From an uncultured Halobacteriales archaeon (GTDB taxonomy: Archaea; Halobacteriota; Halobacteria; Halobacteriales; SW-7-71-33), in the NCBI GenBank assembly GCA_964402765.1, contig CAYODS010000006.1:1-24000 (forward strand): 24,000 bases of DNA, in the 5' to 3' direction. The position numbers and the translations under genes were made by a program. The notes under the pieces were generated by a model. The model was given only the letters and a program-made list of their open reading frames with translations, made no database searches and was not told the origin of the DNA. Each line of letters begins with the position of its first letter. The first letter of the stretch is position 1. Shown here one piece after another: positions 308-16,131 of this stretch.

Positions 308-2518
308 TCAACCCTCCACCCTGACGTCGCCGACCCGTACGCTGACCAACCACCTCGTCTGCACCTCCGAGGGTGCCTTCCCGACGTCCAGCAACAGCAC
401 GACGTTGTTGCGGTCGGTGCCGCCATCGTTGTCGTCGACCTCGACGACAGCGACGACCTCGTTCTTGTCGAGGTCGAGTTGCTGCTGTCCGTCGCCGTCG
501 AAGTCGGTCGTGAGTTCGTCGGGGATCGCGGTGGCGGTGCCGTTCTGCCACCACCACGCCGCGCCGGTCGGCAGGTCCGAGCCGTTCGTGTAGATCGTCG
601 CGCCGGTCGACGAGGCGTTCACCCCGCCGGGCGCGGTGCAGCGGGCGATCTGGTACTCCTTCGAGGCGTTCCACGAGGGGGCTATCGTCGCGCCAGTCGT
701 TGTGTTCGCCGTGCAGTCGTACACGCGGGTCTGGTTGACTGTGAGCGCCTGGCCGTCGTCGACACCGAACAGGGACGGCGAGAGGTCCTCGGGGGTCTGG
801 ACGTTCAGTCCGGGGCCGGTCGGCGTCGCCGAGCCGACCCAGGGCCTGACCGTGTTCGGACCGACGCCGAGGTCGACGACCGTCGGCGTGTTGACGACGT
901 ACCGCTCCGGTACGCGGGTCTGGGAGACGTCCCGGTAGATGTCGTCGAAGACGCTGGGCAGGTCGGCGGCGGTCGGCGCGTGGTACTCGTTGCCGCCGGT
1001 CTGGTCGGCGATCTGCTTCGTGACACGCCGGTCGGCCCCGCCCCCGACGGCGACGGTGTACACCGGGATGCCGCTCGCGTTGGTGACCTGTGTCTCGTTC
1101 ACCCAGTTCGTGAAGTCGGGACCGGAGTCGCCGTGGGCCACGTCCCCGCTGTACGGGACGTTCGGGGGCTGGTCCTCTGTCGGCTTTCCGTCGGTCAGCA
1201 GGACGATCACCTGCTTGTGGGAACTGTTGCCGTCGCGCTCCAGGAGGCGACGGGCGTCACGGAGTCCGGCGTCGGTCGGCGTGGCGTAGTCCAGCGTCCC
1301 GGAGTTGCGCACCTGAGTCTTCGCACCCGAGAGGTTCTCGGTGAGGGTGAAGTGCGTGACCGCCGGGTCCAGCGGCCCGGAGTAGGTGGCATTGTTGTGG
1401 GCGTGTTTCCCGGGGAAGCCGACCGCCGCGACCCGATGGTCGACCGGGTCGCCCTGCAGTTCGTCGATGAACTGCACCGTCGCGTCCTTGGCCTCGTGGA
1501 TCGGCGTCCCCGAGGGGTGGGTCGTGTCGCTCGGGCACCCACCGCTGAGCATCGAACACGACTCGTCAATCACGAAGACGATGTCGACTGGCGTCGTCGA
1601 CACGTTCGAGGTGACGTTGATGTGCGTCTTGTTGTAGCCGTTCTCGGCCGCCAGCAGTCGCGTCGACACCTCGTAGGTGTTGCCGACACCCTTGTCGACC
1701 CGCACGCCGTTCGAGAGCAGTTCTCCGGTGTCGCTGTCTCCGTCGGTGAAGTCGACGACCTTGTTGCGGTCGTCGTCCGCCCGTCGCGGGAGTTCGTCTT
1801 CGTCGAGTTTGAGCGTGACCACGTCACCGGTCCGCGTGACCGACGCCGAGTCCGGGAACTCCGCCTCGAAGTGCTCGCGCCACTGGCCCGGGAACTGGCT
1901 CTCGACCGAGACGGTGATCTCGTCCGGCCTGGTACACCCCGGCTTCGCGAACAGGCGCTCCATCGCCGTCCGGGTTCGCTCGCGAGTCCCCGTCGCGTTC
2001 TCGACGGCGGTGAACGTCCCGTCGGCGCCGCCGCCGCTGACGTTGAACGTCGTCACGCTCAGCGTGCCGTTCCGGTAGCCCACCGCCGGCGGCGACACCG
2101 TCGTCGGCCCCGACTCGGTCACGGCGAACACCCCACCCGCCTGGTACACCAGTTCGGGCCCCTCGTCGACGTCGTACCGGATACTGTCCAGCGCCAGCGT
2201 TCGCGTGCAGGTGCTCGTGCGCTGGACCGACACGGTCACCCGCCCGCCCGTCGTCACCGACGTCGACCCGTCCGTCCCGAGAGACGCCGGCACCGACTGC
2301 CGGTTCGGGCTCACGATCACCGACCGGAGCCGCCCGTCGAGTTCCTGGATCGACTGCGTGGCCCGCTCGGTCGCCGCCTCCTCGGTCAGTTGCCCGCTCA
2401 CCGTCGACCCCCCGACGTAGATCGCCGCCGCCCCGGCGACCACGAGCCCGAACAACAACACCACCCCGACCACCTCCGTCACCCCCCGTCTCGGCCTCGC
2501 GTCGGGTGTCTCTCTCAA
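308..2518 (-). CDS. P1: pilin-signal/vWA family paralogue. Class III (type IV prepilin-like) signal, conserved N-domain, vWA domain, conserved C-domain; predicted secreted or surface protein
   Basis: 736-aa ORF with GC3-rich codons. N-terminus MRETPDARPRRGVTEVVGVVLLFGLVVAGAAAIYV has a basic n-region, RG|VTEV and about 20 hydrophobic residues. vWA MIDAS residues: DxSxS in VDIVFVIDESCSM (aa 311-323), T in DYATPTDAGL, D in VIVLLTDGKP; the vWA segment is roughly nt 923-1591. Many N-x-S/T sequons. No C-terminal TM helix or PGF-CTERM. The only available start codon is TTG at 2516-2518: there is an in-frame stop at 2573-2575 and no ATG or GTG between. Confidence 0.85.
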   Translation of the reverse strand: MRETPDARPRRGVTEVVGVVLLFGLVVAGAAAIYVGGSTVSGQLTEEAATERATQSIQELDGRLRSVIVSPNRQSVPASLGTDGSTSVTTGGRVTVSVQRTSTCTRTLALDSIRYDVDEGPELVYQAGGVFAVTESGPTTVSPPAVGYRNGTLSVTTFNVSGGGADGTFTAVENATGTRERTRTAMERLFAKPGCTRPDEITVSVESQFPGQWREHFEAEFPDSASVTRTGDVVTLKLDEDELPRRADDDRNKVVDFTDGDSDTGELLSNGVRVDKGVGNTYEVSTRLLAAENGYNKTHINVTSNVSTTPVDIVFVIDESCSMLSGGCPSDTTHPSGTPIHEAKDATVQFIDELQGDPVDHRVAAVGFPGKHAHNNATYSGPLDPAVTHFTLTENLSGAKTQVRNSGTLDYATPTDAGLRDARRLLERDGNSSHKQVIVLLTDGKPTEDQPPNVPYSGDVAHGDSGPDFTNWVNETQVTNASGIPVYTVAVGGGADRRVTKQIADQTGGNEYHAPTAADLPSVFDDIYRDVSQTRVPERYVVNTPTVVDLGVGPNTVRPWVGSATPTGPGLNVQTPEDLSPSLFGVDDGQALTVNQTRVYDCTANTTTGATIAPSWNASKEYQIARCTAPGGVNASSTGATIYTNGSDLPTGAAWWWQNGTATAIPDELTTDFDGDGQQQLDLDKNEVVAVVEVDDNDGGTDRNNVVLLLDVGKAPSEVQTRWLVSVRVGDVRVEG

Positions 2519-2530
2519 AAAGTACTCACC

Positions 2531-2566
2531 TGTATAACCAACTAAACCCGAATAAATTAAATTTTG
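2531..2566 (-). promoter_or_regulatory. AT-rich promoter island upstream of P1 (TATA-like candidates)
   Basis: The minus strand reads AAAATTTAATTTATTC (2566-2551) and GGTTATACA (2539-2531), in an otherwise very GC-rich context, 13-48 nt upstream of the TTG start. Which box is used and where the TSS lies cannot be decided from sequence. Confidence 0.35.
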
Positions 2567-2677
2567 CCCCAGTTAGATTCATCTATTGCAAACAGCAGAG
2601 AAGTAACGGCTCCCGCCGAGGGAGGACGATCGCGCCGTCTGCCGAGGGCACGACGGGGTCGGCGGTCGACTGGAAGA

Positions 2678-2685
2678 ACTTTTAC
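2678..2685 (+). promoter_or_regulatory. TATA-like box for the 2709 gene (a leaderless transcript is implied)
   Basis: ACTTTTAC is centred about 27 nt upstream of GTG 2709. This spacing is typical of haloarchaeal promoters driving leaderless mRNAs. Confidence 0.4.
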
Positions 2686-2708
2686 CCGAGAGGTCCGGCG
2701 GGGCGTCC

Positions 2709-3209
2709 GTGAGTGACGGCGCCGGCGGCACGGACGGTCACGGCGGCAAGGGGCCTGACCGTGCCGGGGAACGAGCGGGCGAGCGCGAGCGCGAGCGGCG
2801 CCGGGACAGTCGCCGCCCGCCGCGCTCGTTGCAGGTCGCGGTCGCGGTCGGACTCGGACTCGTCCTGGTCGCCATCGCCGCGCTCGGGGTCGCCGTCTAC
2901 CTCGACGGCGCCGCGCCCGGCGGACTCGACGTACCCCGGGCGGAGTTGCAGTTCTCGTACGACGGGGAGACGGGCACGCTCGCCGTCGAGCACGTCGGTG
3001 GGCCGGCGTACACCACCGAGAACACCGCGGGGCTGTACGTCGCGGTGAACGGCACCGCCCGCGAGACCGTCACCCTGCCGTTCGGACCGGGCGAACGCCA
3101 CGTTCTCGAGGACGTCCCCGCCGGCCAGGAGGTGGCACTCGTGTGGGTCGCGGAGGGCGGCGAGGAGGAACGGACCGTCAGCTCGACCGTCGTGGGCGAG
3201 AGCGAGTGA
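2709..3209 (+). CDS. Small membrane-anchored protein: Arg/Glu-rich N-tail, one TM helix, and a beta-rich ectodomain of about 100 aa reminiscent of archaeal pilin (Pilin_N/DUF1628-type) globular parts
   Basis: 166-aa ORF with strong GC3 bias and an acidic C-terminal part. TM segment: LQVAVAVGLGLVLVAIAALGVAVYL. It is followed by RAELQFSYDGETGTLAVEHVGGPAYTTENTAGLYVAVNG, which resembles the 'FSF..D..G.tltvtH.GGd.l.a..l.v.vnG' pattern I recall from haloarchaeal pilin-like proteins. GTG start with a TATA-like box at -27. Transcribed divergently from P1. Confidence 0.6.
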   Translation: MSDGAGGTDGHGGKGPDRAGERAGERERERRRDSRRPPRSLQVAVAVGLGLVLVAIAALGVAVYLDGAAPGGLDVPRAELQFSYDGETGTLAVEHVGGPAYTTENTAGLYVAVNGTARETVTLPFGPGERHVLEDVPAGQEVALVWVAEGGEEERTVSSTVVGESE

Positions 3210-3251
3210 GGCGGTGTCCACGCGATCGGCCACCACCGGCACAGGGCAGGC

Positions 3252-6200
3252 TCAGCCCGACTCCCCTCCCGAGACGGACTCGGGATCCGGGTCGGCGCCC
3301 GGCTCCGACGCTTCAGAGTCCGGGGCGAGTTCGTCCCGCAGTCGGCGGAACTCCTCGCGGCGCTCCGCCAGGTCGAGGTCGTCCGCGGCGTCGATCCGCT
3401 CCAGAGCGCGCTCACACCACTCCCGGGCGGCCTCGTCGTCGCCGGACTCGCGCTCGAGGTCTTGGAGACGCTCGACGGTCTCGAGCCCCTCCCTGACGGC
3501 GCCCATCCGGTCGTAGCGGTCGAGTGCCTCCTGTAGGTGCTCACGCGCCCGTTCCGTGTTCCCGCGCCGTTCGGCGACATCCGCGAGCGTACCCAGGGCG
3601 TTCGCCTCGCCACGGACGTGCCCGATCTCGACGAACACCGACTGTCCCTCACGGGCGTACTCGCGGGCCCGGTCGAGGTCATCCTGCAACACGGCGACCT
3701 TGCCGAGGTTGTTGAGACAGCCCCCGACGGACTCGGGGTCGCCGAGCCGCCGGTTCTCCGCAAGTGCCCGCTCGAAGAACTCCCGCGCCCGGTCGAGGTC
3801 GCCCTCCTCGCCCGCCACCATGCCGAGGTTGTTGAGCGCTCCGGCCACGCCGTCCCGGTCGCCGATCGTCTCACAGAGGTCGAGCGCCCGCTGGAACTGC
3901 TCTCGCGCCCGGTCGTGTGCGCCGCGGTCGAAGGCGACGTTGCCCAGGTTGTGCAGGGCGATGGCCTCTCCCTGGCGGTCCCCGAGGGCACGGGCGAGTT
4001 CGAGACCGTCGAGGTAGTGCTCCCGTGCGTCCTCGAGGGCGCCCTTCATCCGCTCGACGGTGCCCAGGTCCGTGAGGATCCCCCGCACGGAGCGACGGTC
4101 GCCGGCTTCGCGGGCGATCTCCAGGCTTCGCCGGAACCGCTCGCCCGCCCGGTCCAGGTCGCCGCGCTTCCTGTCGACCCAGCCGAGCTGGTTCAGACAC
4201 TCCGCGACCCTTCCCCGGTCGTCACCCCGTCGCGCCCGCTCCAGTGCCGTCCGGGCGTGCTCCTCGGCGGCGTCGTAGTCGTCACGGGCGTGTGCCACCT
4301 CCGCGAGCCCGAGCGGCCGGACCACGCCCTCGTCCGGCAGCGACTCGAACGCCCGCTCGGCGCGCTCGGGGTCGCCACGGTTCAGCGCCGCCCGGCCGAG
4401 CCAACGGTCCAGGTCCGCCTCCGTGACCCGCTCGCACGCCGCCGGTAGGTCGACGCTCGCGCCGGACGCGCCGAACAGCGGAACCACCTTCGGGCGCTCC
4501 CGGGCCAGCGAGAACAGCGCCTCGGCGGTCTCGTCGGCCCACTCCGTCGGCGCCGCCTCGACCCGGGGCAGTGCCGACGCCTCGGTCTCCTGGCGGAGCC
4601 GCTCGCGGCGCCGTGGGTCGTCGGCGAGCGCGAGCAGCCGCGAGATGGCCCGGCCGAACCGCTCCGTGGCCCGCTCCGCGTCCGCGGCCGCGGCGAGAAA
4701 CGCCGTCGCCCACGCCTCGTGGACCGTCCGGTAGGTGCCGTCGTCGCCCACGCCGAACAGCAGTCGACCGTCCAGCAGGTCGACCGTCCGCTCGGCCGTC
4801 TCCTCGCCCGGCTCGGCCAGCGCGTGGAGGTGTCCCGGCCCGAACGGCACCCCGGCGGCGGTCAGCGCCGCCGCCGTCGTCGCCACGCTGACGGAGTGTT
4901 CTTCCTCCGAGACGCGCTCGCGGAGCCGCTCGACGGCCTCCTCCAGCGTGGTCGAGTCCTCGGCCAGCGGGTCGGCGTACAGCGCCAGCCGGTGGGTGAG
5001 CAACAACACCTCGTCCGGCGCCGCCCCGTCGCCGCCGGGGCCCCGGTCACCCTCGATCGTCTCCCGCAGGCGCTCGACCGGCACGTCGATCGTCGTCTCG
5101 GCGGTCCGCTCGAACTGCTCGACCACGCGCCGGTAGTCGGTGTCGTCGAGCGACGGCATCGGCTCGACGGCGAGGTCGAGGGCGTCGAGGTCGGTCGCCG
5201 GCGCCGCCGGCGGGTCGTGCCACTCCGACAGGCGGGCGTCGAACAGGAACGAGACCGACGCCCCGGCCAGCCGTCTCGCCGCCTCGACGGCCCCGACCGC
5301 CCCGGGCTGGACGACGTCCTCGACGACCACCAGCGTGTGCCCGTCGGTCGCCTCGACGGCGGCGACGAGGTCGTCGACCGACTCGACCGCCGCCCCGCGC
5401 CCGCGCTCCCGGTACAGCACCGGCCCGTGCCCGGCGTCGTACCACTCGCAGGCGACCTGCTTGCACACCGTCGACTTCCCCGACCCCGGTGGGCCGACGA
5501 CCAGCGTGTCCTCGCCCGCCGTCAGGGCCGCCAGCAGGCGGTCGGTCAGCGACTCGCCCTCGTCTGTCGTCCGGTCGGCGGCGTAGCCGCTCTGGACCTC
5601 GGCCACGTCCAGCCCGGCACGCCACGCCGTCGCCGGGTCCGCGACGGGACTGTCGACGAAGTACGACCGGTCCAGGGCGACGAACCCCTCGCGCTCCAGT
5701 GCGACCGGCAGTCCGCCCCGCCCGTCGTCGAGGTCGCTGGCCCCCGTCTCCCTGGCGACGGACGCCGTCACCGGCGTGGCCGCTGACCGCAGGTCGGCGT
5801 AGGTCGACTCGGCCCAGCGAACGGCCGCCTCGGCGTCGTTCCGGATCACCGCGTGGACGCCCCCGTCGACGACCACGACCACCGTGACGACCGTCCGGTC
5901 GCCGGTCTCGGCGACGACGACCCCGAACGACGGCACCTCGCCCGTCAGCAGTTCGAACTCCTCGGCGGCCATCGCGCGCAGTTCGCCCCCGAACCTGGCG
6001 GCCAGGGATTCCCGGACCGCCGGGGAGACGACCACCTCGACCGCGGCGTCGTCCCTGACGACGCGGTCGTACAGCAGCCGCGCCGTCGGCGCCGAGACGG
6101 TCGGCAGGGCGGCCCGGACCCGGTCGGCCTCGCGGAGACTCTCCCGGAGTCGCCCTGGCGCCCGGTAGCGCTCGCCGTCGGACGGGCCGACGACCTCAGC

Positions 6201-6530
6201 GTCCGACAGCACGGCGGGGACGAGCGGGGCGTCAGCCGGGAGTGGGTCAAGCGCCCCCTGGGCCGCCACCACCCCCTCTACGCGACGCCGGTGTGCCCGG
6301 TGGGCGTCCAGTGCCAGCCGACCCGACGGCGTCAGCGCGTAACCCTCGCTGTCGTCGCTCCCCTCGACGAACCCGGCGGCCGCCAGTCTCCGCACCGCAC
6401 GGCTGGCGGTGCTCTTCGAGACGTCGGTACGGTCCGCCAGCTCACCGAGCGTCAGCCGGTCGTCCGCCAGTGCCCCCAGCAGGTGTCGGCGCCGGGCCAG
6501 CAGGTCGACGGGGTCGTCGGCGTCCTCCAT
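3252..6530 (-). CDS. Multidomain regulator-like protein: winged-HTH plus COG4742/FilR1-like regulator module, P-loop NTPase (STAND/AAA-like), and C-terminal TPR array
   Basis: 1092-aa ORF starting at ATG 6530. The wHTH is at aa 10-75 (LGELADRTDVSKSTASRAVRRLAAAGFVE...GYALTPSGRLAL). A regulator C-domain-like block covers aa 150-250 (VVVVVDGGVHAVIRNDAEAAVRWAESTY). Walker A GPPGSGKST is at aa 346-354 (nt 5469-5495). Walker B-like LVVVEDV is at aa 400-406 (nt 5313-5333). A helical linker follows, then six or more 40-aa TPR-like units at aa 776-1015 with degenerate flanking units, and an acidic tail. Confidence 0.85.
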   Translation of the reverse strand: MEDADDPVDLLARRRHLLGALADDRLTLGELADRTDVSKSTASRAVRRLAAAGFVEGSDDSEGYALTPSGRLALDAHRAHRRRVEGVVAAQGALDPLPADAPLVPAVLSDAEVVGPSDGERYRAPGRLRESLREADRVRAALPTVSAPTARLLYDRVVRDDAAVEVVVSPAVRESLAARFGGELRAMAAEEFELLTGEVPSFGVVVAETGDRTVVTVVVVVDGGVHAVIRNDAEAAVRWAESTYADLRSAATPVTASVARETGASDLDDGRGGLPVALEREGFVALDRSYFVDSPVADPATAWRAGLDVAEVQSGYAADRTTDEGESLTDRLLAALTAGEDTLVVGPPGSGKSTVCKQVACEWYDAGHGPVLYRERGRGAAVESVDDLVAAVEATDGHTLVVVEDVVQPGAVGAVEAARRLAGASVSFLFDARLSEWHDPPAAPATDLDALDLAVEPMPSLDDTDYRRVVEQFERTAETTIDVPVERLRETIEGDRGPGGDGAAPDEVLLLTHRLALYADPLAEDSTTLEEAVERLRERVSEEEHSVSVATTAAALTAAGVPFGPGHLHALAEPGEETAERTVDLLDGRLLFGVGDDGTYRTVHEAWATAFLAAAADAERATERFGRAISRLLALADDPRRRERLRQETEASALPRVEAAPTEWADETAEALFSLARERPKVVPLFGASGASVDLPAACERVTEADLDRWLGRAALNRGDPERAERAFESLPDEGVVRPLGLAEVAHARDDYDAAEEHARTALERARRGDDRGRVAECLNQLGWVDRKRGDLDRAGERFRRSLEIAREAGDRRSVRGILTDLGTVERMKGALEDAREHYLDGLELARALGDRQGEAIALHNLGNVAFDRGAHDRAREQFQRALDLCETIGDRDGVAGALNNLGMVAGEEGDLDRAREFFERALAENRRLGDPESVGGCLNNLGKVAVLQDDLDRAREYAREGQSVFVEIGHVRGEANALGTLADVAERRGNTERAREHLQEALDRYDRMGAVREGLETVERLQDLERESGDDEAAREWCERALERIDAADDLDLAERREEFRRLRDELAPDSEASEPGADPDPESVSGGESG
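3486..4205 (-). repeat. Six tandem 120-bp (40-aa) TPR-like coding repeats inside the 3252-6530 CDS
   Basis: Units begin AECLNQLGWV.., RGILTDLGTV.., AIALHNLGNV.., AGALNNLGMV.., GGCLNNLGKV.. and ANALGTLADV... Each has the pattern ..LG.V....GDLDRARE.F..AL......GD. DNA-level echoes such as cgcgcccggtcgaggtc recur with a period of 120 bp. Confidence 0.75.
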
Positions 6531-6561
6531 ACGGTAGCCTCGACGGGGGCGGCGTCACAAG

Positions 6562-7260
6562 TCAGTTCGGGTCCTCGAGCACCACGGGAACGCCGCTCTC
6601 GGCCACGTCGGCCGCGAAGGCGCGCTCGTCGGTCTCTATGGCCTCGAAGGTGTCGTAGTGTACCGGCAACACGAGGTCGGGGTCGGCCGCGGCGGCCAGG
6701 GCGGCGGCCTCGTGGCGGTCCATCGTGAAACTGCCACCGATCGGCGGCAGCAAGAGGGAGGCGGCGAGGTCGGCGTGGAAGTCCAGCACGTCGGTGTCGC
6801 CCGGCCAGAACACCGGCAGGCCGTCGACGCGGACCCGGAACCCGACGCCGAACCCCTCCGGGTGGTACGGGGTGCCGTCCTCACGGACGTGGCCGTCGGG
6901 CCGGTTGTGCGCGGGGAAGGACTCGACGCGGACCCCGTCCACCCGGAGGGCGTCGTCCTGGCCGATCCGGTTCACGCGCCGGTCCAGCTCCTCCGGCGGG
7001 ACCACGTCGCGGTCGATCCCCGCCGGGTCGACGCCGTCGTACACGACGAGCGTGGCGTCCTCGCTCGCGACGCGGTCGATCCCCTCGGAGTCGTAGTGGT
7101 GGTCGTGGGTCACACAGACCACGTCGCCGTCGCGGGGCTCGTGGCCGTCGAGCACGCCGTACCGTCCGGGGTCGAGGTAGACGACGCCGTCGCTGCCCTC
7201 GATCCGGACGGTGGCGTAGCCGAGCCAGTCGACGCGCAGGCCCTCGTGTCGGACTGTCAT
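6562..7260 (-). CDS. MBL-fold metal-dependent hydrolase (beta-lactamase superfamily, UPF0173-like)
   Basis: 232 aa. N-terminus: MTVRHEGLRVDWLGYATVRIEGSDGVVYLDPG. Metal-binding motif VCVTHDHHYD (HxHxDH variant). Later residues include PGDTD and LPVHYDTF. Confidence 0.8.
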   Translation of the reverse strand: MTVRHEGLRVDWLGYATVRIEGSDGVVYLDPGRYGVLDGHEPRDGDVVCVTHDHHYDSEGIDRVASEDATLVVYDGVDPAGIDRDVVPPEELDRRVNRIGQDDALRVDGVRVESFPAHNRPDGHVREDGTPYHPEGFGVGFRVRVDGLPVFWPGDTDVLDFHADLAASLLLPPIGGSFTMDRHEAAALAAAADPDLVLPVHYDTFEAIETDERAFAADVAESGVPVVLEDPN

Positions 7261-7298: not shown

Positions 7299-9599
7299 TC
7301 AGGTGCTCTCTTCGACCTCGGTCACGTCGAGATCGAGCACCTGGTTCACCTCGTACTTCGTGGAGTAGCCCACCTCGTACAGCATCACCAGACCGTTCGT
7401 GTCGTGGCTCCCCGCGTCAGCGAACTCGTAGACGACGACCACCTGGTTGCTCTGCAGGTCGAACGTGCCCCCGCTGGTGTAGGGGTCGACGATGTCGGCC
7501 ACGCGCCGCTGCCAGCCGACGGGCGTCCCGCCGTCCGTGACGCTGCTCACCGGGTCGCCCGCGACGGCGACGTGGACGTCGGCCGCACCACCGACACTCG
7601 ACAGCCCCGGTCCGGCACACCGGTACTCGTTGTAGTGGTCGTCGAAGTCTCCCCTCACGGCGTCGTTGTACGGGTACTGGGCGGCGCTCGAGTTGTTCGT
7701 CCGGTACCCCCACTCCCTGTCGACCAGGGTGCGTTCGCCGCTCTTGTTGACGTCACAGGTGTACCGCTCGACCTCGGTGGTGAGCTTCTCGCCGTCGGTC
7801 AACAGCCCCGGCGTCTCGACGCGCCCGCCGTACTCCTGGTGGACGGCGTCCGCGACGGGACTACCGCTGTCACCCCAGGTCTTGCCGTCGTGGGTGTGCT
7901 CGACGGTCACCGGCTCGTGCAGCACACCACGGATGTCCGTGATGTAGTAGGTGTCGGTGCCGTTTGGCACCCTGTAGGAGTAGTTCTCGCCCTTGCCGAT
8001 GAGGTTCTCGAAGGTGTCGTCGAGCTCCTCGCCCTCGCCCTTGTACACGTGGTCGTACTCGGCGTCGGTGTCGGCGGCGACGTCTTTCATCAGCCCCTTG
8101 TTGACGTCGCTGTCGCTGCCGAACGTCACCGTGTACACCTTGTACCCCTTGTCGATGGCGTCCGCGACGGGGCAGTTGTCGCTGGGTGAGGTACTGCCGC
8201 CCAGCGGTCTGCCACAGGACGGGTCGTACGGGCCGGCCCCGCCGTTCGGCTCCCCGTCGGTCATCATGATGATGACCTCGCTGCGGTTGGGGTCCTGCCC
8301 GAGTTCGGACATCGCCTCCTCCAGTCCGTCGTCCATCGGGGTGCCGCCGCTGTCGCTGAGACCGCTGGCCGCGCTCTTGACGTCCCCGAGGTTCGATGTC
8401 AGTCCCTGGTGGACCTTCGTGTTCCCGCCGTGGCTGCCGGAGTAGCCGACCAGCGCCGCCTTGTGACTCTTGTTGTCGCTCTGCAGCCGCGAGGTGAACT
8501 GCTTGACCGCCGCCTTCGTGTCGGAGATCTGCTGGCTGCTCATCGACCCGGACTCGTCCATCAGGAACACCACGTCGAGCGGCTCCTCGCTGCCGGGGTC
8601 CCAGACCCACTTGTAGTCGGGCACCTCCTTCTCGTGTCTGTGGGACTCGTTGTACCCCACGTCGCCGCCGAGCACCTGTGCAGTGAGCCCGTACCGGTTG
8701 TCGTCGGCGGGCTTGTCGACGACGATGTCGACGCCGCTGCCGTTTCTGACGACGGTCCCGTACGCGTCCGGGCCGGACTCGTTGAACGCGACGACCCTGT
8801 TGCGGGAGTCGTTGACGGCGTCGAGCAGCACCCGCTCGGGCATCTCGACCTCGACCCTGTCGGCCGCCGGCGTCGACACCGTCACCCCGCTGACGTCGCC
8901 GAGACGGGACTCGAAGTACCGCTCCCAGCCGCCGGCCCGCTCGCTCTCGACTATCAGCTTCACGCCGTCCGGACGGTTACAGTCCTGGGTGGCGAACAGG
9001 TTCCGAAGCGCCTGCTTCGTCTGCTGGACCGACCCCTCGACGTCCCGGCTGGCGGTGAACTCGTGGGTCAGGTCAGCGGGCAAGTCGAACACCGAACTCT
9101 TCACAGTCCCCTCAGTCAACCCGACGTCCGGCGGCGTGTCGACGACCGTACTGCCGTCCTGGGTGACGAATACGCCGCCCGCCTGGTAGCTGATCACCGT
9201 GCGGTCGTTGACCTCGTAGTCCACGCGGTCGAGGGGCACCGTCGCCTCGCAGGCGCCGGTGTATCCCGTCCCGTCGTGGAAGCGTATCGTCAACTGGTCG
9301 GTCGTGTCCACCCGCACCGACTCCTCGTCACCGACGCGGTCGGTGATCTCGAACGAGACCGCCGAGGAGTCACTCCTGACGGAGAGGTCCGCGAGGGAGG
9401 CGTCGAGTTCCTCGACCGACCCGATCGCCGACTCGTACCTGCTCTGTTCGGAGATCTGGTTCTGTGCGCTCGTTCCCGTGACGACCACCAGTGCCGCCCC
9501 AGCGATGACGAACCCGAATAGTAGTGCGATACCGATGACCTCCGAGACGCCGCGGTCCGGCGCCCCCCCTGGTGACAGTTCTCTATCGCTGGCGTCCAT
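7299..9599 (-). CDS. P2: pilin-signal/vWA family paralogue
   Basis: 766 aa, ATG start. N-terminus: MDASDRELSPGGAPDRGVSEVIGIALLFGFVIAGAALVVV. MIDAS residues: DVVFLMDESGSM (DESGSM is nt 8541-8558), SGGTPMDDGL, VIIMMTDGEPN. The vWA segment is roughly nt 7995-8582. Collinear with P1, P3 and P4 in the N- and C-domains, including four conserved Cys (aa 117, 207, 615, 661). Confidence 0.9.
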   Translation of the reverse strand: MDASDRELSPGGAPDRGVSEVIGIALLFGFVIAGAALVVVTGTSAQNQISEQSRYESAIGSVEELDASLADLSVRSDSSAVSFEITDRVGDEESVRVDTTDQLTIRFHDGTGYTGACEATVPLDRVDYEVNDRTVISYQAGGVFVTQDGSTVVDTPPDVGLTEGTVKSSVFDLPADLTHEFTASRDVEGSVQQTKQALRNLFATQDCNRPDGVKLIVESERAGGWERYFESRLGDVSGVTVSTPAADRVEVEMPERVLLDAVNDSRNRVVAFNESGPDAYGTVVRNGSGVDIVVDKPADDNRYGLTAQVLGGDVGYNESHRHEKEVPDYKWVWDPGSEEPLDVVFLMDESGSMSSQQISDTKAAVKQFTSRLQSDNKSHKAALVGYSGSHGGNTKVHQGLTSNLGDVKSAASGLSDSGGTPMDDGLEEAMSELGQDPNRSEVIIMMTDGEPNGGAGPYDPSCGRPLGGSTSPSDNCPVADAIDKGYKVYTVTFGSDSDVNKGLMKDVAADTDAEYDHVYKGEGEELDDTFENLIGKGENYSYRVPNGTDTYYITDIRGVLHEPVTVEHTHDGKTWGDSGSPVADAVHQEYGGRVETPGLLTDGEKLTTEVERYTCDVNKSGERTLVDREWGYRTNNSSAAQYPYNDAVRGDFDDHYNEYRCAGPGLSSVGGAADVHVAVAGDPVSSVTDGGTPVGWQRRVADIVDPYTSGGTFDLQSNQVVVVYEFADAGSHDTNGLVMLYEVGYSTKYEVNQVLDLDVTEVEEST

Positions 9600-9700: not shown

Positions 9701-9840
9701 CGCGAACGGGGCGGTGGGGAGGCGAATCAGTTCCCGGGCTCGACCACGCCGGCGCTCGGGTCGATCGCGAGCGGGGCGGTAGAGGAGAGGCGAGTCAGTT
9801 CTCGGGCTCGACCACGTCGACCTTCAGGTCGACCGCGAAC
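9701..9840 (-). repeat. Tandem duplication (units 9701-9765 and 9766-9833, plus 7 nt of a third unit) copying the P3 3' end and its proximal 3' flank
   Basis: Unit A: cgcgaacggggcggtggggaggcgaatcagttcccgggctcgaccacgccggcgctcgggtcgat. Unit B: cgcgagcggggcggtagaggagaggcgagtcagttctcgggctcgaccacgtcgaccttcaggtcgac. My hand alignment gives about 85 % identity with one 3-nt indel. Unit B holds the true P3 end (..FAVDLKVDVVEPEN*). Unit A encodes a relic tail, LAIDPSAGVVEPGN*. Confidence 0.85.
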
Positions 9841-11984
9841 TCCGCGGACATCGAGGTCGACTTGCCGACGGTGTACATCACGACGGCGCCGTTGAGGTTC
9901 GAGCCGGTCGGGTCGCTGTAGGCGACGACCACCTGGTTGCTCTGCAGGTCGAACGTCCCGCTGTCGGTGTAGGGAGCGACCATCTGGTCGAAGTTCGTCT
10001 GCCAGGCGGGCGAGGAACTCGACGGCACGCTGTCGCCGTCGGTGAACACCTGCACCGTGCTCGGGGTCTTCTTGGAGCTGTGGTCGACCGAGTCACACCG
10101 GTACTGGTCGTAGGCGTCGTACTTGTACTTCGGCTTGATTGTCGGCGGCCCGCTGCCGGTGTCGACGACGAGGTCCGAGACGTTCGACGGGAGCGACATC
10201 GAGGCGGGTTCGGTGGGCTTGTTTTTCACGCTTGCGCAGTCGAACAGATTCGCGCGGATCTTCATCCGCTTGCCGTCGGGCAGCGAGGGGACGGCGGTGA
10301 CGTACTCCTGGTAGTTGACCGCCTGCTGGACCTTCGTGGTGCCGCTGACGACGGGCTCGTAGCCGCCGCTGCCGACCTTCTGTTCCAAGACGACGGGCTT
10401 GCGGACGATCTTCGGCGGCTCGGTCAGGTTGTACACCGTCTTCGTGCCGACGGTCCCGTTGTACACCTTGTACCCCAGGTCGTTGACGATGAGCTTGTAC
10501 TCGTCACCGATGGCTTTCGCCTCCGAGATGTGGGCGTAGAGCCCGCCGGTGTTGAACGCGATGCTCCCCAGGGTGGTCTTGTCAGCCCCCGGCCCGAACC
10601 CGATGGTGTAGATCTTGATGCCGTGGTTGTTTGCCTTCTTGACCATCCCGTACGGGTACGAGGCGTGCCCGTCTGACATCAGGGCGATCACCTTGTTGCG
10701 GTCAGACCCCGTGTTCTTCAGCTGATTGATGGCGTGGGACAACGCCGGAGTGAAGTCAGTGCCACCGCTGGCGCTCAGACTGTCCACCGAGTCCTTCAGC
10801 GCCGCCCGGTCGCTGGTGAGACCCTTGTGCGGGTTCGCCCCGCTGTCGAAGCCGACGAGCGACGCTTTGTGGTCCCGATTGTTGGGGAACTCGTCGAGGA
10901 ACTTCCGTATCGGGTCTTTGGTGTTGTCGATCTCGTCGTTCATCGAGCCGGACTCGTCGACCAGGAACACGATGTCCAGGGGCTTGCCGTCCTTGCTCTT
11001 CCACACCCGACCGGTGATGTTCTGCTCCGTCTTCGTCACCTTACCGTTCGTCTGGCCGTACTGCGTCCCGAGCAACTGTGCGGTGACCTTGTAGCTGTTG
11101 TTCGTACCCTTGTCGACCCAGAGCTTCGCACCGTTGCCGTCCGGGATGACGTCGCCGGCGATCGTCTTGTTCGTGAAGTCGACGACGTTGTTGCGGTCGT
11201 CGTCGGTCTCCTTCACCAGCTGAGAGTTGTTGATCACCGCCGTGACCGTCGAGCCGCTGACCGTCACCGACACGCCGGAGGGAGTCTCATCGCGGAGGTG
11301 TTTCGCCCACACTTCCGTGTCGTCCGTGTCGATCGTGACCCGCACCTTCTCCGGGCGCTTGCAGGCACTGTTCCCGAACAGGTCCGACTTCTTCTTGGCG
11401 GTGACCTCCTTGGACCGCTCGACGTCATGTTCGACCCCGAACTCGTCGTCCTGGATGTCGCTCTTGAACTTGGTGAGCCGCAGGCCGAGGGTGCCCTCGC
11501 TGAACCCGAGGTCCGGCTCGCTGACGATCTTCGTGTGGTTCCCCGTCGTCTTGAACACGCCGCCGGCCTGGTGGGTAAATGTCGTCTCGTTGTCGACGTC
11601 GTACACGATCTCCTGCAGCGGGATCGAGGTCATACAGTCGGAACGGAACTTGTTTCCGTCGTGTAACTCGACGGTTACGCTGTCGCCTGTCTCCATGTGG
11701 ACCGACTCGCCGTCGGCGTCACGGTCGGTCAGGTCGAACGAGACCTGTTTCGGCGCGCCGTCGCTCGTGACGTCTGACAGTTTCGTGTCGAACTGCTGAA
11801 CGGCCTTCTCTGCCGACTCCACCTGTCCCTGTTCCTCGAAACTGCTCTGGGCCGAGGTCCAAGTCACGGCGACCAACGCCGCGCCGGCCACGATCAGGCC
11901 GAACAGGAGGACGACGCTTATTACCTCCGAGATACCACGACGCTGGTCCCCCAGGTCAGGACCGTCTCCGCGATCCCCCTTCAT
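9795..11984 (-). CDS. P3: pilin-signal/vWA family paralogue (Lys-rich, lower-GC member)
   Basis: 729 aa, ATG start. N-terminus: MKGDRGDGPDLGDQRRGISEVISVVLLFGLIVAGAALVAV. MIDAS residues: DIVFLVDESGSM, SGGTDFTPAL, VIALMSDGHAS. The vWA segment is roughly nt 10470-10982. Conserved Cys at aa 117, 208, 583 and 630. C-terminal blocks: TFDLQSNQVVVAY, VVMYTVGKST, VDLKVDVVEPEN. Confidence 0.9.
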   Translation of the reverse strand: MKGDRGDGPDLGDQRRGISEVISVVLLFGLIVAGAALVAVTWTSAQSSFEEQGQVESAEKAVQQFDTKLSDVTSDGAPKQVSFDLTDRDADGESVHMETGDSVTVELHDGNKFRSDCMTSIPLQEIVYDVDNETTFTHQAGGVFKTTGNHTKIVSEPDLGFSEGTLGLRLTKFKSDIQDDEFGVEHDVERSKEVTAKKKSDLFGNSACKRPEKVRVTIDTDDTEVWAKHLRDETPSGVSVTVSGSTVTAVINNSQLVKETDDDRNNVVDFTNKTIAGDVIPDGNGAKLWVDKGTNNSYKVTAQLLGTQYGQTNGKVTKTEQNITGRVWKSKDGKPLDIVFLVDESGSMNDEIDNTKDPIRKFLDEFPNNRDHKASLVGFDSGANPHKGLTSDRAALKDSVDSLSASGGTDFTPALSHAINQLKNTGSDRNKVIALMSDGHASYPYGMVKKANNHGIKIYTIGFGPGADKTTLGSIAFNTGGLYAHISEAKAIGDEYKLIVNDLGYKVYNGTVGTKTVYNLTEPPKIVRKPVVLEQKVGSGGYEPVVSGTTKVQQAVNYQEYVTAVPSLPDGKRMKIRANLFDCASVKNKPTEPASMSLPSNVSDLVVDTGSGPPTIKPKYKYDAYDQYRCDSVDHSSKKTPSTVQVFTDGDSVPSSSSPAWQTNFDQMVAPYTDSGTFDLQSNQVVVAYSDPTGSNLNGAVVMYTVGKSTSMSAEFAVDLKVDVVEPEN

Positions 11985-12010: not shown

Positions 12011-12020
12011 TCAAAAAGGT
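12011..12020 (-). promoter_or_regulatory. TATA-like box for P3
   Basis: The minus strand reads ACCTTTTTGA, centred about 30 nt upstream of ATG 11984, within the AT-rich divergent intergenic region 11985-12100. Confidence 0.4.
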
Positions 12021-12054
12021 TCTCCCCGATAACCTGAACGGCGTGGCGAGGCAT

Positions 12055-12090: not shown

Positions 12091-12155
12091 ACCCGGTCGA
12101 CGGGCGTGGCGTGCGTCCGAAACCCATTAGGGACGGACCGGTCGTATCCCTTCGC

Positions 12156-13148
12156 ATGGTCACGTTCCTGTCAGGCGGCACCGGGACGCCGAAGCTGTTG
12201 GACGGCGCCGCGGCGGCGTTCTCGCCCGGGGAGACGACGGTGGTCGCGAACACCGGTGACGACGTCGAGATCGGTGGGCTGCTCGTCTGTCCGGACCTCG
12301 ACACGGTGCTGTATCAGGGTGGCGGCGTGCTGGACCGCGAGACGTGGTGGGGTGTCAGCGGCGACACGGACCGCACGCACACGGCGCTGCACGACATCGC
12401 GGACGCCGCCGAACTGTCGACCGAGCCACAGTACCTGGACGACGAGCGCCAGACCGCCGGCCGGAACATCGCCGACTGGCGGCGGTTCTCCGGCGCCGGC
12501 GAGTTCATGCGGATCGGCGACCGTGACCGCGCCTTCCACATCACCCGCACGAGCCTGATCGACCGAGGACACACCCTCAGCGAGGCCACCGAGGTGCTCG
12601 CGGACGGGATGGGCGTCTCGATCGACATCCTCCCGATGAGCGACGACCCCGTCGCCACGCTCGTCCACACCCCCGACGGGGTGATGCACTTCCAGGAGTT
12701 CTGGGTCCACCACGACGGCGAGCCAACCGTCGAGAACGTGGAGTTCCGCGGCGCCGCCCGCGCCGACCCCGCGCCGGGCGTCCTCGACGCGCTGGAGGAC
12801 ACCGTCGTGATCGGCCCCTCCAACCCCGTCACCGGCATCGGCCCCACGCTCGCGCTGCCAGGCGTCGCCGAGGCGCTGCAGGAGACCACCGTCGTCGTCG
12901 TCTCGCCGTTTGTCGAGGGCGAGGCGTTCTCCGGGCCCGCGGTGAAGCTGATGGACGCCGTCGACGCCGACCCCGGCACCGCCGGGCTGCCGCGCGCGTA
13001 CCCCTTCGCCGACGCGTTCGTGATCGACGAGGACGACGCCGTCGAGTTCGACGTGCCCACGGTCCGCACCGATATCTCGATCGACGGCCGCGAGGACGCC
13101 GCCCGCGTGATCGAGGCCGTCACCGACGCCGTCGCGGAGGTCCGGTGA
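12156..13148 (+). CDS. cofD: 2-phospho-L-lactate transferase (LPPG:FO transferase, coenzyme F420 biosynthesis)
   Basis: The N-terminus [17 protein letters not shown]...[25 protein letters not shown] is the CofD/YvcK-family signature. Later residues include [20 protein letters not shown]. The ORF track starts at GTG 12111, but ATG 12156 gives the canonical N-terminus. Confidence 0.85.
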
Positions 13149-13149
13149 C

Positions 13150-13935
13150 GTGCGGGCCCGTCTCGCGCTGGCGAGCCTGAGCGGCCGGTCGGACGCCGAG
13201 TGGGCCCGCGACGGTGCCCCACGGGCCGACGTCGCGTTTCTGGGCGGGTTCGCGCTCGACGGGCCGACGAGGTCGGCCGCACGCGGCGCCGTCCTCCGGG
13301 ACCGCGAGGAGTTCCTGCCGCCCGACCCCGTCACCTTCGTCGCGGACCAACTCGACGCACTGGCCGACGCCCCCGTCCGCCCCGGCGTGAACGTCCGTGC
13401 CGTTGATCCCGACGCCGTCGGGTCTGTCGCGCGGGTGTGTGCCGCTCGCGACGCGGTGATCGAGGTCAACGCCCACTGTCGCCAGCCCGAGACGACCGCC
13501 GCCGGCGCCGGGCAGGCACTGATGCACGACCCCGAGCGACTCGCCGCCCACGTCCGGACGGCCAGCGAGACGGGCGCGACGGTCTCGGTCAAGCTCCGCA
13601 CCGAGGTCGACGGCGTGGACCTGCCCGCCCTCGCCGGGCGACTCGCGGACGCCGGGGCCGACGCCGTCCACGTCGACGCGATGGACTCGGAGGGCGTCGT
13701 CGCCGGCGTCGCCGCCGCCGCGCCCGGCACCTGGGTGATCGCCAACAACGGGGTCCGGGACCGCCGCACCGTCAGGGAGTATCTCGCGTACGGCGCGGAC
13801 GCCGTCAGCGTCGGCCGTCCGAGCACCACGCCCGCCGTTCTCCGTCGCGTGCGGACGGCCGTCGACGGGTGGTTCGACGCCGGGGCGTCCACGCCGACAG
13901 AGGGCACCGAGCGCGCCCCTCGGTCGTCGGGGTAG
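13150..13935 (+). CDS. Dus-like FMN-dependent TIM-barrel oxidoreductase (dihydrouridine synthase / dihydroorotate dehydrogenase superfamily)
   Basis: 261 aa. GTG 13150 lies 1 nt after the cofD stop codon, so the two genes look coupled. The EVNAHCRQPE motif resembles the Dus active-site Cys context. Other matches: VSVKLR, GADAVHVDAM, ANNGVRD..., YGADAVSVGR (a phosphate-binding-like C-terminus). The family assignment is from memory only. Confidence 0.55.
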   Translation: MRARLALASLSGRSDAEWARDGAPRADVAFLGGFALDGPTRSAARGAVLRDREEFLPPDPVTFVADQLDALADAPVRPGVNVRAVDPDAVGSVARVCAARDAVIEVNAHCRQPETTAAGAGQALMHDPERLAAHVRTASETGATVSVKLRTEVDGVDLPALAGRLADAGADAVHVDAMDSEGVVAGVAAAAPGTWVIANNGVRDRRTVREYLAYGADAVSVGRPSTTPAVLRRVRTAVDGWFDAGASTPTEGTERAPRSSG

Positions 13936-13950
13936 CGAGCGTCGTGCCGG

Positions 13951-16131
13951 TCAGTCCTCGAACTCCACCACGTCGACCGTCAGGTCGATCGTGGCGGTGG
14001 CGCTGGTCGAGTGTGGCGCCCCGACACGGTACAGCAGGACCGCGTTGTTCGTCTCCCCGGCACCGTCGCCGTCGTCGTCGTAGGAGAACGCCACGATCAC
14101 CTGGTTGCTGTCGAGGGCGAACTCCTCGGCGCCGTCGCCGTCGATGTCGGCGGCGTGGGGGGCGACCATCTCCCTGAACTCCGTCTGCCACTCGGCGGGC
14201 TGGTCGCCGACGGCGGCGTTGACCGGATCGCCGCGGACGTACCCGTCGGCGTCGGCTGGCGGACTGTACGTCGTCGTCACCTCGCACTCGTAGTGGTCGT
14301 AGTACGCGGGGTCGGTCTCGTAGGCCGGCTTCAGGTCGAAGTCGTCGTCGAAGGCGTCCGAAGGGAGCGGGACCCGGGTCCGGAAGGGGGTGTCCGCCTG
14401 GTCGTCGTGGTCGGGACACCCGTAGAAACTGGCGGTCGTGCTCAGGGGCTCGCCGTCCGCGAGTGTCGGCGGCGTCACGACGTACTCCTCGTAGTTGACC
14501 GCCCGGTAGACGGGGCTGGCCCCGCCGACCATCGACTCCCAGGTGCCGCCGCCGAGGCGGTACCGGAGAACGACGGGCTCGTGGACGATCCGCATCGTGC
14601 TGACGTTCGCCTCGACGGCCTTCAGGGTGAGATTCGGGAGCCCGTCGTACAGGTGCATGTAGAACCCGCGGCCGCCACGGTTCTGGATCCGGATCTTGTT
14701 CGACTCCGGGGTGAACAGGAACGTCCGGTCGGCGTCGTCACCGAGCGCGTCGGTGTGGTTGTAGAGTGTCGTCCAAGAGCCGCCGTCTTTCTCCTGGATC
14801 TCGAACCTGGCGTCGTCGAGCAGCTCCCTGTCCGTCGCGGCGGCCAGGACGACCGGCTCACCCGGGTCGACGGTGTACTCCTTCCAGGTGCCGCAGTTGT
14901 TGTACACCACCCACGCCGCCGCCCCCGGCCCCGTGGTCGGCCTGTCGACGCCGCTGGCGCTCGTACAGGTCGACCCCTTCGCGTCGGTCTTCACCGGGTA
15001 ACTCTCCTCAAGCAGGGAGGCGGGCACGCCCGCGATGACGGCACCCGACCCGACGTAGTCGGTGACGTCGACGTCGGCCCTGCCGACGACCCGACCCGAC
15101 CCGTCGACGGTGACGAGTTGCAGCTTCTCGCTGCGGTTGGCCGCCCGACGGAGCAGGGAGCCGTCGATCTCCTTCACCGTCGTGTTCACCGTGAGGTGCT
15201 GCTGACCCGTCTGCGCCCCCAGGAACTCGGTGGAGACGTCGTAGGCGTTCGAGTCGTCGGGCTTGTCCACCTCGATCTCGACCGCCCGGGAGTGTTCGCT
15301 GACCGTTCCGGGGAGCGTGCTGGTGTTGAAGCCGACGACCTGGTTGCGGTCGTCGTCCGCGCGCTCGACGAGCGTGCCACCGCCCAGTTCGACCGTGACC
15401 TCGTCGGGCGTCGAGACGACCGTCGCCGAGTCCGGGGTCTCCTCACGGAGGTGTTCGCTCCAGGCGGCCGTGTGGTCGGTCTCGACGACGAGTTTCACGC
15501 CGTCCGGCCGCCGACAGCCCTCGCCGTCGAACAGGTCCCGGCGCACCTGGTCGGTGGTCCGGCTGGACGCCGTCACGTTCCGGGTCACCTCGAGCCTGCC
15601 GCTGCCGGCGTCGTCCGGCAGCGCCACCGTCCACACGTTCAGGGTGCCGTCGCTGAACCCCACGTCCGGGGCGGTGACGAACTCCGTCGACCCGTCCTCC
15701 TGGCGGAGCACCCCGCCACCCTGGTACACCATCGACGTCTCGTCGGTGACGCGGTAGCGCACCTCGTCGAGGGGCACCGTCACCTGGCACTCCGGCACGT
15801 ACCCGGCGTCGGTGCGCACCCACAGCCGCAACTGGTCGTCTCGCTGGACCGTGACTCGCTCGCCCTCACCGTCCAGCTCCGCCAGGTCGAGCGTATCACT
15901 CCTCGCCTCTCCCTGTGTCGCCACGTCGGTGAGCCGACTGTCGAACTCCTCCATCGTCACCTCGGCGGACTCCACCCGTATCTCTGTCTCCACCCCCGAC
16001 CCGGCCTCCGACCACGCGACCGCGAGGATCGCCGCCGCGGAGACGACCAGCCCGAAGAGGATGACCAGACTCATCAACTCCGAGACGCCCCGGCGTCCGT
16101 CCCCCCGGCTCGTGGCCGGCCTCCCCCTCAT
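13951..16131 (-). CDS. P4: pilin-signal family paralogue lacking the vWA domain (the middle domain is replaced)
   Basis: The ORF track gives 13951-16281, but its first 50 codons run through the AT-rich promoter region. ATG 16131 gives MRGRPATSRGDGRRGVSELMSLVILFGLVVSAAAILAV (726 aa), collinear with P1-P3. The N-domain (C115, C206, YQGGGV, DDDRNQVVGF, VDKPDD) and C-domain (C572, C616, LDSNQVIVAF, VLLYRVG, IDLTVDVVEFED) are conserved. No DxSxS/MIDAS is present in aa 320-512 (nt 14596-15174). Confidence 0.85.
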   Translation of the reverse strand: MRGRPATSRGDGRRGVSELMSLVILFGLVVSAAAILAVAWSEAGSGVETEIRVESAEVTMEEFDSRLTDVATQGEARSDTLDLAELDGEGERVTVQRDDQLRLWVRTDAGYVPECQVTVPLDEVRYRVTDETSMVYQGGGVLRQEDGSTEFVTAPDVGFSDGTLNVWTVALPDDAGSGRLEVTRNVTASSRTTDQVRRDLFDGEGCRRPDGVKLVVETDHTAAWSEHLREETPDSATVVSTPDEVTVELGGGTLVERADDDRNQVVGFNTSTLPGTVSEHSRAVEIEVDKPDDSNAYDVSTEFLGAQTGQQHLTVNTTVKEIDGSLLRRAANRSEKLQLVTVDGSGRVVGRADVDVTDYVGSGAVIAGVPASLLEESYPVKTDAKGSTCTSASGVDRPTTGPGAAAWVVYNNCGTWKEYTVDPGEPVVLAAATDRELLDDARFEIQEKDGGSWTTLYNHTDALGDDADRTFLFTPESNKIRIQNRGGRGFYMHLYDGLPNLTLKAVEANVSTMRIVHEPVVLRYRLGGGTWESMVGGASPVYRAVNYEEYVVTPPTLADGEPLSTTASFYGCPDHDDQADTPFRTRVPLPSDAFDDDFDLKPAYETDPAYYDHYECEVTTTYSPPADADGYVRGDPVNAAVGDQPAEWQTEFREMVAPHAADIDGDGAEEFALDSNQVIVAFSYDDDGDGAGETNNAVLLYRVGAPHSTSATATIDLTVDVVEFED

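Follow-up and report, generated by a model that had tools for sequence, protein, structure and literature searches.

Four minus-strand genes on a contig of an uncultured Halobacteriales archaeon (GenBank assembly GCA_964402765.1, contig CAYODS010000006.1, positions 1 to 24,000; this whole stretch of 24,000 nucleotides is hereafter called the window) code for a family of large proteins, P1 to P4, in which a pilin-like N-terminal module and a conserved C-terminal domain enclose a central cassette that, in P1, P2 and P3, is a vWA (von Willebrand factor type A) domain with a complete metal ion-dependent adhesion site (MIDAS). We consider it somewhat probable that P1-P4 are modular minor pilins which are processed by the peptidase PibD, enter a type IV filament and are placed at its tip through their bulk. 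An earlier note, made without database searches, had already proposed them as candidate modular pilins or tip adhesins; the class III pattern of their N-termini and the homology of their N-domains to proteins of pil operons, a link beyond the reach of the note, support this in part, whereas cleavage, filament incorporation, tip location and ligand binding are what we infer for P1-P4.

The four open reading frames (ORFs) lie where the earlier note had placed them, namely P1 at 308-2518 (736 amino acids), P2 at 7299-9599 (766 amino acids), P3 at 9795-11984 (729 amino acids) and P4 at 13951-16131 (726 amino acids). P1 begins with a TTG, at 2518, the sole start upstream of the signal that keeps the leader, and the frame of P4 is open to 16281, with an ATG at 16131 that gives an N-terminus collinear with those of P1-P3. 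The shared plan formerly aligned by eye was recovered in a MAFFT alignment, in which P1-P4 are collinear from end to end, and in pairwise BLASTP comparisons of the full-length proteins (28-38% identity, E values of 1e-38 to 1e-104). Taken in isolation, the N-domains match one another with E values of 1e-44 to 1e-74 and the C-domains with E values of 6e-36 to 3e-4, the lowest pair being P1-P2 with 28 bits. Since both domains are significant on their own, the similarity extends beyond the vWA domain and the family is real; an absence of similarity outside the vWA domain, which the earlier note had named as an outcome that would speak against it, was not observed. Furthermore, each paralogue of the window has its own cluster of orthologues, with identities of 64-78% for P2, 66-72% for P3 and 56% for P4, which indicates that the duplications are old and the copies retained; the set thus appears to be anciently diverged and maintained. 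The database representative of the P1 cluster (P0006) was called from a later start (MTEVVG...), so that its leader is cut off.

The first ~210-240 residues of P1-P4 match Pfam family PF23960 (DUF7289) with 76.2, 77.4, 79.8 and 68.7 bits, respectively, for a gathering score of 27 bits (E values of 1e-19 to 1e-22; profile positions 1 to ~208-230 of 238). The N-scaffold, formerly described as unrecognised, is therefore a known Pfam family, which covers residues 10-236 of P1 (nucleotides 1811-2491), 15-251 of P2 (8847-9557), 14-249 of P3 (11238-11945) and 13-247 of P4 (15391-16095), and is followed in P1 by a linker β region (residues 238-303). The same description does hold for the C-domain of ~210 amino acids (residues 538-735 of P1, nucleotides 314-907; 557-764 of P2, 7308-7931; 522-728 of P3, 9801-10421; 511-726 of P4, 13954-14601), for which no Pfam family, no match among PDB sequences and no significant Foldseek match was found.

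All four proteins open with a class-III-type leader, R-G followed by [VI]-[ST]-E, which reads RGVT, RGVS, RGIS and RGVS in P1 to P4 (residues 11-16). The motif was judged by a FlaFind-type pattern, [KRDE][GA][..][..], and by the general form of class III signals near the N-terminus, in which a short charged stretch closes with [KR]-[GA] and ~20 hydrophobic residues come directly after it. Indeed, the hydrophobic segment after the leader is the only one in each protein (Kyte-Doolittle values of 2.6-2.8 over a 19-residue window, and at most 1.3 elsewhere), in agreement with the signal strings quoted in the earlier note and with its statement that there is no C-terminal transmembrane helix. Among 144 relatives, 124 carry a class-III-type motif and the remaining 20 look like late-start, truncated gene calls. 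The consensus of the 124 leaders is [DER]-R-[GA]/[VAQ]-S-[E>P,N,D]-[VLI]-[VIL]-G-x-V-L, the slash marking the predicted cleavage site, and a minority of relatives carry S-P-V-(I/V)-G, as canonical archaeal pilins do. Many gene calls of the family begin within or after the leader, so automated annotation often masks the class III signal.

In three haloarchaeal operons, pilB and pilC are followed by five pilin-like genes, and the last of these encodes a short DUF7289 protein of ~240 amino acids. On pHME505 of Haloferax mediterranei, the order is a T2SSE/PilB3-type ATPase, a PilC-type protein, DUF7287, DUF7288, DUF7261, DUF7266 and DUF7289, and a Pilin_N gene of the PilA type lies just downstream; in Salinibaculum, ATPase, PilC, DUF7288, DUF7266 and DUF7289 stand in succession; and in Halobaculum halophilum an ATPase and PilC are followed by five genes, as judged from gene order and from a tblastn match of the last gene to DUF7289, the other four not having been scanned. 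Against the N-domains of P1-P4, the short proteins of these operons align over 220-250 amino acids in tblastn, with E values down to 1e-10. The protein of pHME505 (243 amino acids, 326710-327441) is homologous over its whole length to the first ~240 residues of P1-P4 and shares with them the R-[GA]-V-S-E leader and the hydrophobic helix; the short proteins end after the pilin-like module and are encoded within pil operons, whereas in P1-P4 the module is extended by a linker, a cassette (vWA or other) and a C-domain of ~210 amino acids, and their genes lie outside any pil operon. In a comparison of leaders from two loci (L009 and L006), DUF7289 was the only one of the five pilin-like families to keep an acidic residue, a Glu at position +3 relative to the predicted cleavage site, where the other four have T, F, L or I; this Glu is a possible counterpart of Glu5 in bacterial pilins.

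A full-length relative was also found within a minor-pilin cluster. With P2 as a query, tblastn against annotated plasmids identified a 764-residue protein in Salinigranum marinum, encoded at the end of an overlapping, co-directional cluster, DUF7287 - DUF7288 - DUF7261 - DUF7266 (with PKD) - DUF7289 (242 amino acids) - DUF7289+vWA+C, all of whose products have pilin-like N-termini; here a five-gene pilin-like cluster ends with the gene of the large protein. Two further loci (L011, 6690-12345, and L012; GCA_054021055 and GCA_054019455) contain the five-gene cluster with a DUF7266 member carrying PKD and vWA domains (P0154), after which come two short DUF7289 genes; the cluster has no neighbouring ATPase gene, and ParA/MinD-like and S26 signal-peptidase-like genes lie upstream. 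In Halobacterium salinarum, pilB2 and pilC2 are co-transcribed in the pil-2 locus, which is specific to haloarchaea and comprises seven ORFs, three of them FlaFind-positive (PMC4292770). This locus may be of the operon type described above.

P3 was modelled with AlphaFold2 from an alignment of 55 family sequences, and the model reached a mean predicted local distance difference test (pLDDT) score of 86.3. It predicts a continuous helix of 57 residues (18-74), a β-rich domain extending to ~330, an α/β vWA domain (336-502) and a β-rich C-domain (505-729). The model of P4 is confident in the N- and C-domains only, with a helix at residues 15-72 followed by β-strands at high pLDDT. In Foldseek searches of the PDB with the P3 model, the vWA domain alone was matched (E values of 1e-10 to 1e-12, TM-score up to 0.83 on the target), its solved relatives including ITIH1, ArnB, Cav α2δ and the anthrax-toxin receptors as well as the pilus adhesins SpaC, RrgA and Mfa5. 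That only the vWA domain has relatives of solved structure would suit a reading of P1-P4 as common vWA proteins, secreted or Sec-anchored, whose hydrophobic N-terminus is conserved and whose likeness to pilins is coincidental. We regard such a coincidence as very improbable in view of the significant homology, over their full length, of the DUF7289 proteins of pil operons, the class-III-type motif kept by all relatives save the apparently truncated calls, and the 57-residue N-terminal helix.

Pfam VWA is above its cut-off of 23.8 bits in P1-P3, with 55-71 bits, at residues 309-531 of P1 (nucleotides 926-1594), 339-535 of P2 (7995-8585) and 334-502 of P3 (10479-10985). As the earlier note had stated, the MIDAS is complete in these three proteins, and the 55-sequence alignment shows little or no variation at its D-x-S-x-S, T and D residues. 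P1-P3 thus join a DUF7289 module to a vWA domain, the combination of an N-terminal pilin module with an extra non-pilus domain by which modular pilins have been defined (Raynaud et al. 2021). P4 lacks the vWA domain. In its place stands an insert of ~185 amino acids (residues ~320-506; 14614-15174) that matches no family, nothing significant being found there by Pfam, and the cluster orthologous to P4 (P0008) is likewise without D-x-S-x-S. A decayed vWA domain was considered for this insert on account of the MAFFT pairing of LVTVDGSGRV with VFLVDESGSM, and was rejected: the family vWA hidden Markov model (HMM) gave -1.1 bits on P4 compared with 156 bits on P3, and AlphaFold2 found no confident fold in the insert (pLDDT ~35).

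When 1.84 billion cluster representatives were searched exhaustively with a profile, 155 were found at E < 1e-30, ~60 of which are 690-820 amino acids long and match from end to end. Domain HMMs derived from the family alignment were then run on 164 fetched proteins (P0001-P0164), seven translated loci and the four proteins of the window. The plan of P1-P3, N - linker - vWA - C, was found in 64 sequences, N - vWA - C in 21, N - C without any insert in 16 of ~500 amino acids, N - (split vWA match) - C in 10 of ~1050-1600 amino acids with extra sequence before the vWA domain (DUF7305 in P0004), and N - linker - C without vWA in three, including P4 and P0008. According to these counts, the conserved unit is DUF7289 plus the C-domain, with vWA as one among several cassettes that separate the two. 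The vWA domain is hence not simply grafted onto a pilin, as had been supposed, but lies centrally between two scaffold domains that are joined directly in the relatives of ~500 amino acids. P0004 (1238 amino acids; DUF7289+DUF7305+vWA) has the C-domain of P1-P4, and P0154 (789 amino acids; DUF7266+PKD+vWA), from the five-gene cluster mentioned above, is without it; both resemble P1-P4 in fusing a pilin-like N-module of the five-gene set to a vWA domain, and differ from them in carrier modules or extra domains. Since the vWA domain of P0154 sits on a DUF7266 member, grafting of vWA onto the minor-pilin set recurs. The domain plans of the family would also accommodate a broader scenario, which we put forward tentatively, in which DUF7289 and the C-domain form a carrier, peculiar to haloarchaea, whose cassette can be exchanged (none, vWA, DUF7305+vWA or the P4 insert), and the anciently diverged paralogues compete for a single tip on type IV pili whose assembly machine is encoded elsewhere, so that pilus tips would be interchangeable and differ in binding specificity.

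Other searches recovered fewer relatives. A word-index protein search yielded five matches with P3 as a query and 15 with the 55-sequence alignment at the set threshold of E <= 1e-20; with the C-domain alignment it returned no match, not even the query's own entry, a null that we take as a limit of the method because the exhaustive profile search gave 155 representatives. Genome and metagenome scans, which used peptide patterns from the four paralogues and so reach close relatives only, found one locus and five loci, respectively.

Several results weigh against the assignment of P1-P4 to pilus filaments. Both curated pilin models stay below their cut-offs (Pilin_N, PF07790, best 15.8 against 25.2 bits; TIGR02537, best 17.8 against 20). 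The N-module is far larger than characterised archaeal pilins; its sole match among PDB sequences is a weak one to the archaeal flagellin 7txi (E 0.33), and Foldseek searches of the PDB with the whole P4 model, confident only in the N- and C-domains, returned no solved pilin (best E 0.036, probability at most 0.13). DUF7289 itself has no demonstrated function, its only experimental link being the co-transcription in pil-2, whose ORFs may belong to these families, and a literature search by the names of DUF7289 and its companion families gave no results. Two five-gene clusters have no ATPase within ~10 kb. In the window, Pfam scans of all sizeable ORFs and tblastn with haloarchaeal PilB and PilC detected no PilB, PilC, A24 peptidase (PibD) or other minor-pilin gene, as the earlier note had also concluded for the assembly machinery. 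Moreover, most family members of known context stand alone among metabolic genes.

Besides the window, such stand-alone cases include a syntenic contig (L005) of a Halobacteriales metagenome-assembled genome, two metagenome contig types, P0004 and other long DUF7289 proteins. L005 carries an orthologue of P3 (72% identity), an orthologue of P2 (78%), a metallo-beta-lactamase (MBL) gene and then a small pilin-like gene; in the two metagenome contig types the family member adjoins an amidohydrolase gene, and a PilB-like ORF begins ~9.6 kb away. A TnpB/Cas12f-like gene (TNB domain; 15163-16458, plus strand, in L014/L016) lies ~2.6 kb downstream of the stand-alone member on these metagenome contigs. 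The scattering of the four genes described in the earlier note is correct as far as there is no pilus operon, but P3 and P2 form a tandem pair with 195 bp between them. These contexts weaken a strict operon link, and they are not unusual for haloarchaea: in Haloferax volcanii the genes of the adhesion pilins PilA1-6 are spread over separate parts of the genome (PMC4292770), and no pilin genes belong to the pilB3-C3 operon (PMC6491452). Because haloarchaeal pilin genes are normally scattered in this way, missing machinery nearby is no argument against a pilin role.

The isolation of the genes, here and in most relatives, the sub-threshold scores of the canonical pilin models and the very large ectodomain would also be expected if P1-P4 were membrane-anchored surface adhesins and not filament subunits, their pilin-like N-terminus serving as a signal-anchor, uncleaved or cleaved by PibD but retained, and the protein reaching through the surface layer (S-layer) to bind ligands by its vWA domain. 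FlaF/FlaG and the Sulfolobus sugar-binding proteins are examples of archaeal proteins that have class III-like N-termini and are not known to form part of long filaments. We hold this main alternative to be a real possibility, although an unlikely one: the N-module is a complete copy of a family whose short members are encoded in pilB-pilC operons with four other pilin-like genes, the leader is strictly conserved, with small -1 and basic -2 residues that a plain signal-anchor would not need, and one family member, that of S. marinum, is encoded inside a minor-pilin cluster.

The absence of a major pilin gene among the five, together with the two clusters that have no adjacent ATPase, could instead point to a priming complex or short pseudopilus of the kind seen in type II secretion. 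Here the five-gene set would form a stub capped by the large paralogues, which might sense surfaces or mechanical cues in the manner of CpaL rather than serve as simple adhesins; indeed, the Caulobacter minor pilin CpaL, which bears a vWA domain, affects surface sensing and pilus number (PMC11870444). Such a complex seems to us improbable, as PilA-type Pilin_N genes flank the operons of Hfx. mediterranei and Halobaculum, and the window suggests no signalling partners of the four genes.

If P1-P4 are modular minor pilins, the precursor would be inserted in the membrane and PibD, encoded elsewhere, would cut the leader behind its R-G. By means of its long hydrophobic helix at the N-terminus, the protein would then dock in the helical core of a type IV filament, which a PilB/PilC machine likewise encoded elsewhere would build, and there it would replace or adjoin the ordinary 240-residue DUF7289 subunit of the five-protein minor-pilin set. 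With ~700 amino acids outside the cell, the proteins would be too bulky for the filament body and would be restricted to the tip or to a very low copy number, so that the Mg2+-dependent MIDAS face of P1-P3, or the other cassette of P4, would be exposed for binding to surfaces, matrix or other cells. As the four paralogues diverged anciently, they may provide alternative binding specificities.

By analogy, the systems that appear functionally closest are PilB of Streptococcus sanguinis and CpaL/TadG. S. sanguinis PilB, like P1-P3, has a class III signal and joins a pilin module to a vWA domain whose MIDAS is canonical; it is a Mg/Mn-dependent adhesin whose vWA bulk fits only a tip location in the published model (PMC8179133). 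It differs in being bacterial, with the N-methylation motif IPR012902, a small pilin module and a vWA domain attached C-terminally through a short loop, whereas P1-P3 have an archaeal DUF7289 carrier of ~240-330 amino acids and an extra conserved C-domain after the vWA; outside the vWA domain no sequence homology between P1-P4 and PilB was detected. Caulobacter CpaL and Aggregatibacter TadG (PMC11870444; TadG also PMC4858521) likewise have a pilin-like N-module, a vWA domain with MIDAS and extra β-rich domains for which no fold relatives are known, are encoded or act with a few minor pilins and are predicted to sit at the tip. In CpaL, encoded in or near a tad locus, a β-rich region interrupts the vWA domain, unlike the order in P1-P4, in which no Tad or TadE Pfam model was found (E up to 0.1); there are no tad or pil genes in the window. 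The PilY1/PilC adhesins of type IVa pili are also large tip effectors, some with an N-terminal vWA domain, and are mounted on a minor-pilin complex, but PilY1 is not a pilin and ends in a C-terminal β-propeller, which searches of Pfam, PDB sequences and Foldseek did not find in the C-domains of P1-P4, proteins that have a pilin-like helix of their own. Given the lack of Tad, TadE or PilY1 models, the archaeal carrier module and the different domain order, membership of P1-P4 in these families is not supported.

In archaea, PilY-like adhesins have been predicted for methanococcal loci only, and vWA proteins have been discussed as regulators (Makarova et al., PMC4858521), whereas the survey of modular pilins relied on a bacterial signature (PMC8179133). 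We found no description of archaeal modular pilins, or of these DUF families, in the literature. The principle is nevertheless already known in bacteria, and the proteins are already deposited, as "VWA domain-containing protein" or DUF7289+VWA.

The two plus two invariant Cys described for P1-P4 are a feature of the whole family, being invariant or nearly so across 55 full-length members, which suggests two disulfides, one per scaffold domain. N-x-S/T sequons number 17, 11, 9 and 7 in P1, P2, P3 and P4, for shuffle means of 5.9, 4.3, 6.3 and 2.9; their reported abundance is therefore a two- to three-fold enrichment in P1, P2 and P4, and only a marginal one in P3. The C-termini are acidic, β-strand-like tails without the PGF-CTERM/archaeosortase pattern (PGF motif, transmembrane helix and basic tail), and their order, which the earlier note had mixed up, is VRVGDVRVEG in P1, LDVTEVEEST in P2, VDVVEPEN in P3 and VDVVEFED in P4. 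The block given as YQ[AG]GGV reads HQAGGV in P3.

The window has ~70% G+C and a haloarchaeal type of gene content. Upstream of P1 and divergent from it lies a small Pilin_N-like gene (2709-3209, plus strand; Pilin_N E 0.002 at residues 51-106), overlooked in the earlier description of the neighbourhood, whose membrane-anchored product has a basic stretch, one transmembrane helix and a Pilin_N-like β-domain, and in which the canonical [KR][GA] cleavage motif is absent. It is 75% identical over 130 amino acids to an ORF in the same relative position on L005 (~6485-6900, minus strand) and is thus a conserved neighbour of the large genes, possibly belonging to the same neighbourhood group as P1-P4. 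Between it and the MBL gene stands a gene for a regulator-like protein of 1092 amino acids (3252-6530, minus strand), with a HVO_A0261_N/MarR-type helix-turn-helix, a FilR1 middle domain, a STAND NTPase and TPR repeats; on L005 only ~750 bp separate the two flanking genes, so this gene was either inserted here or deleted there. Further along the window are asd (17958-19040), a D-2-hydroxyacid dehydrogenase gene (19050-20120, minus strand) between asd and the first of two aldo/keto reductase genes, and the tandem of these reductases (19984-21174 and 21216-21989, plus strand), ordinary metabolic genes.

The four genes have 62-70% G+C and an AT skew of -0.15 to -0.27, compared with 72-76% G+C and near-zero skew in neighbouring housekeeping genes, a composition that could result from the bias of surface proteins rich in Thr, Ser, Asn and Asp or from a foreign origin. 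A search for tRNA genes, as possible signs of an island boundary, found none. Upstream of P2 and P3 (9600-9794 and 11985-12110), an AT-rich, TATA-like stretch lies ~25-35 nucleotides before the ATG, and TTAATCAA directly precedes the ATG of both genes, which suggests separate promoters and short leaders that may have been inherited from the duplication. Beyond these AT-rich stretches and the TTAATCAA of P2 and P3, no common promoter or regulatory motif was found upstream of the four genes.

Haloarchaea encode dozens of predicted pilins, 42 of them in Hfx. volcanii (PMC6491452), of which only the adhesion pilins PilA1-6 have been studied. Pilin-like proteins of ~750 amino acids with a MIDAS domain are concrete candidates for the adhesive tip of haloarchaeal pili, and the analysis defines a new C-terminal domain and the position of the cassette. 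If the proposed role is correct, the modular-pilin principle, so far documented in bacteria alone, would extend to archaea, and DUF7287, DUF7288, DUF7261, DUF7266 and DUF7289 would gain a candidate role as a minor-pilin set. Interchangeable tips, if they exist, would be an archaeal equivalent of two bacterial strategies, adaptable tips and modular pilins; no relative of solved structure was found for the scaffold that would carry them. If P1-P4 were instead membrane-anchored adhesins, they would still represent a class of surface proteins that is fairly widespread in haloarchaea and as yet uncharacterised.

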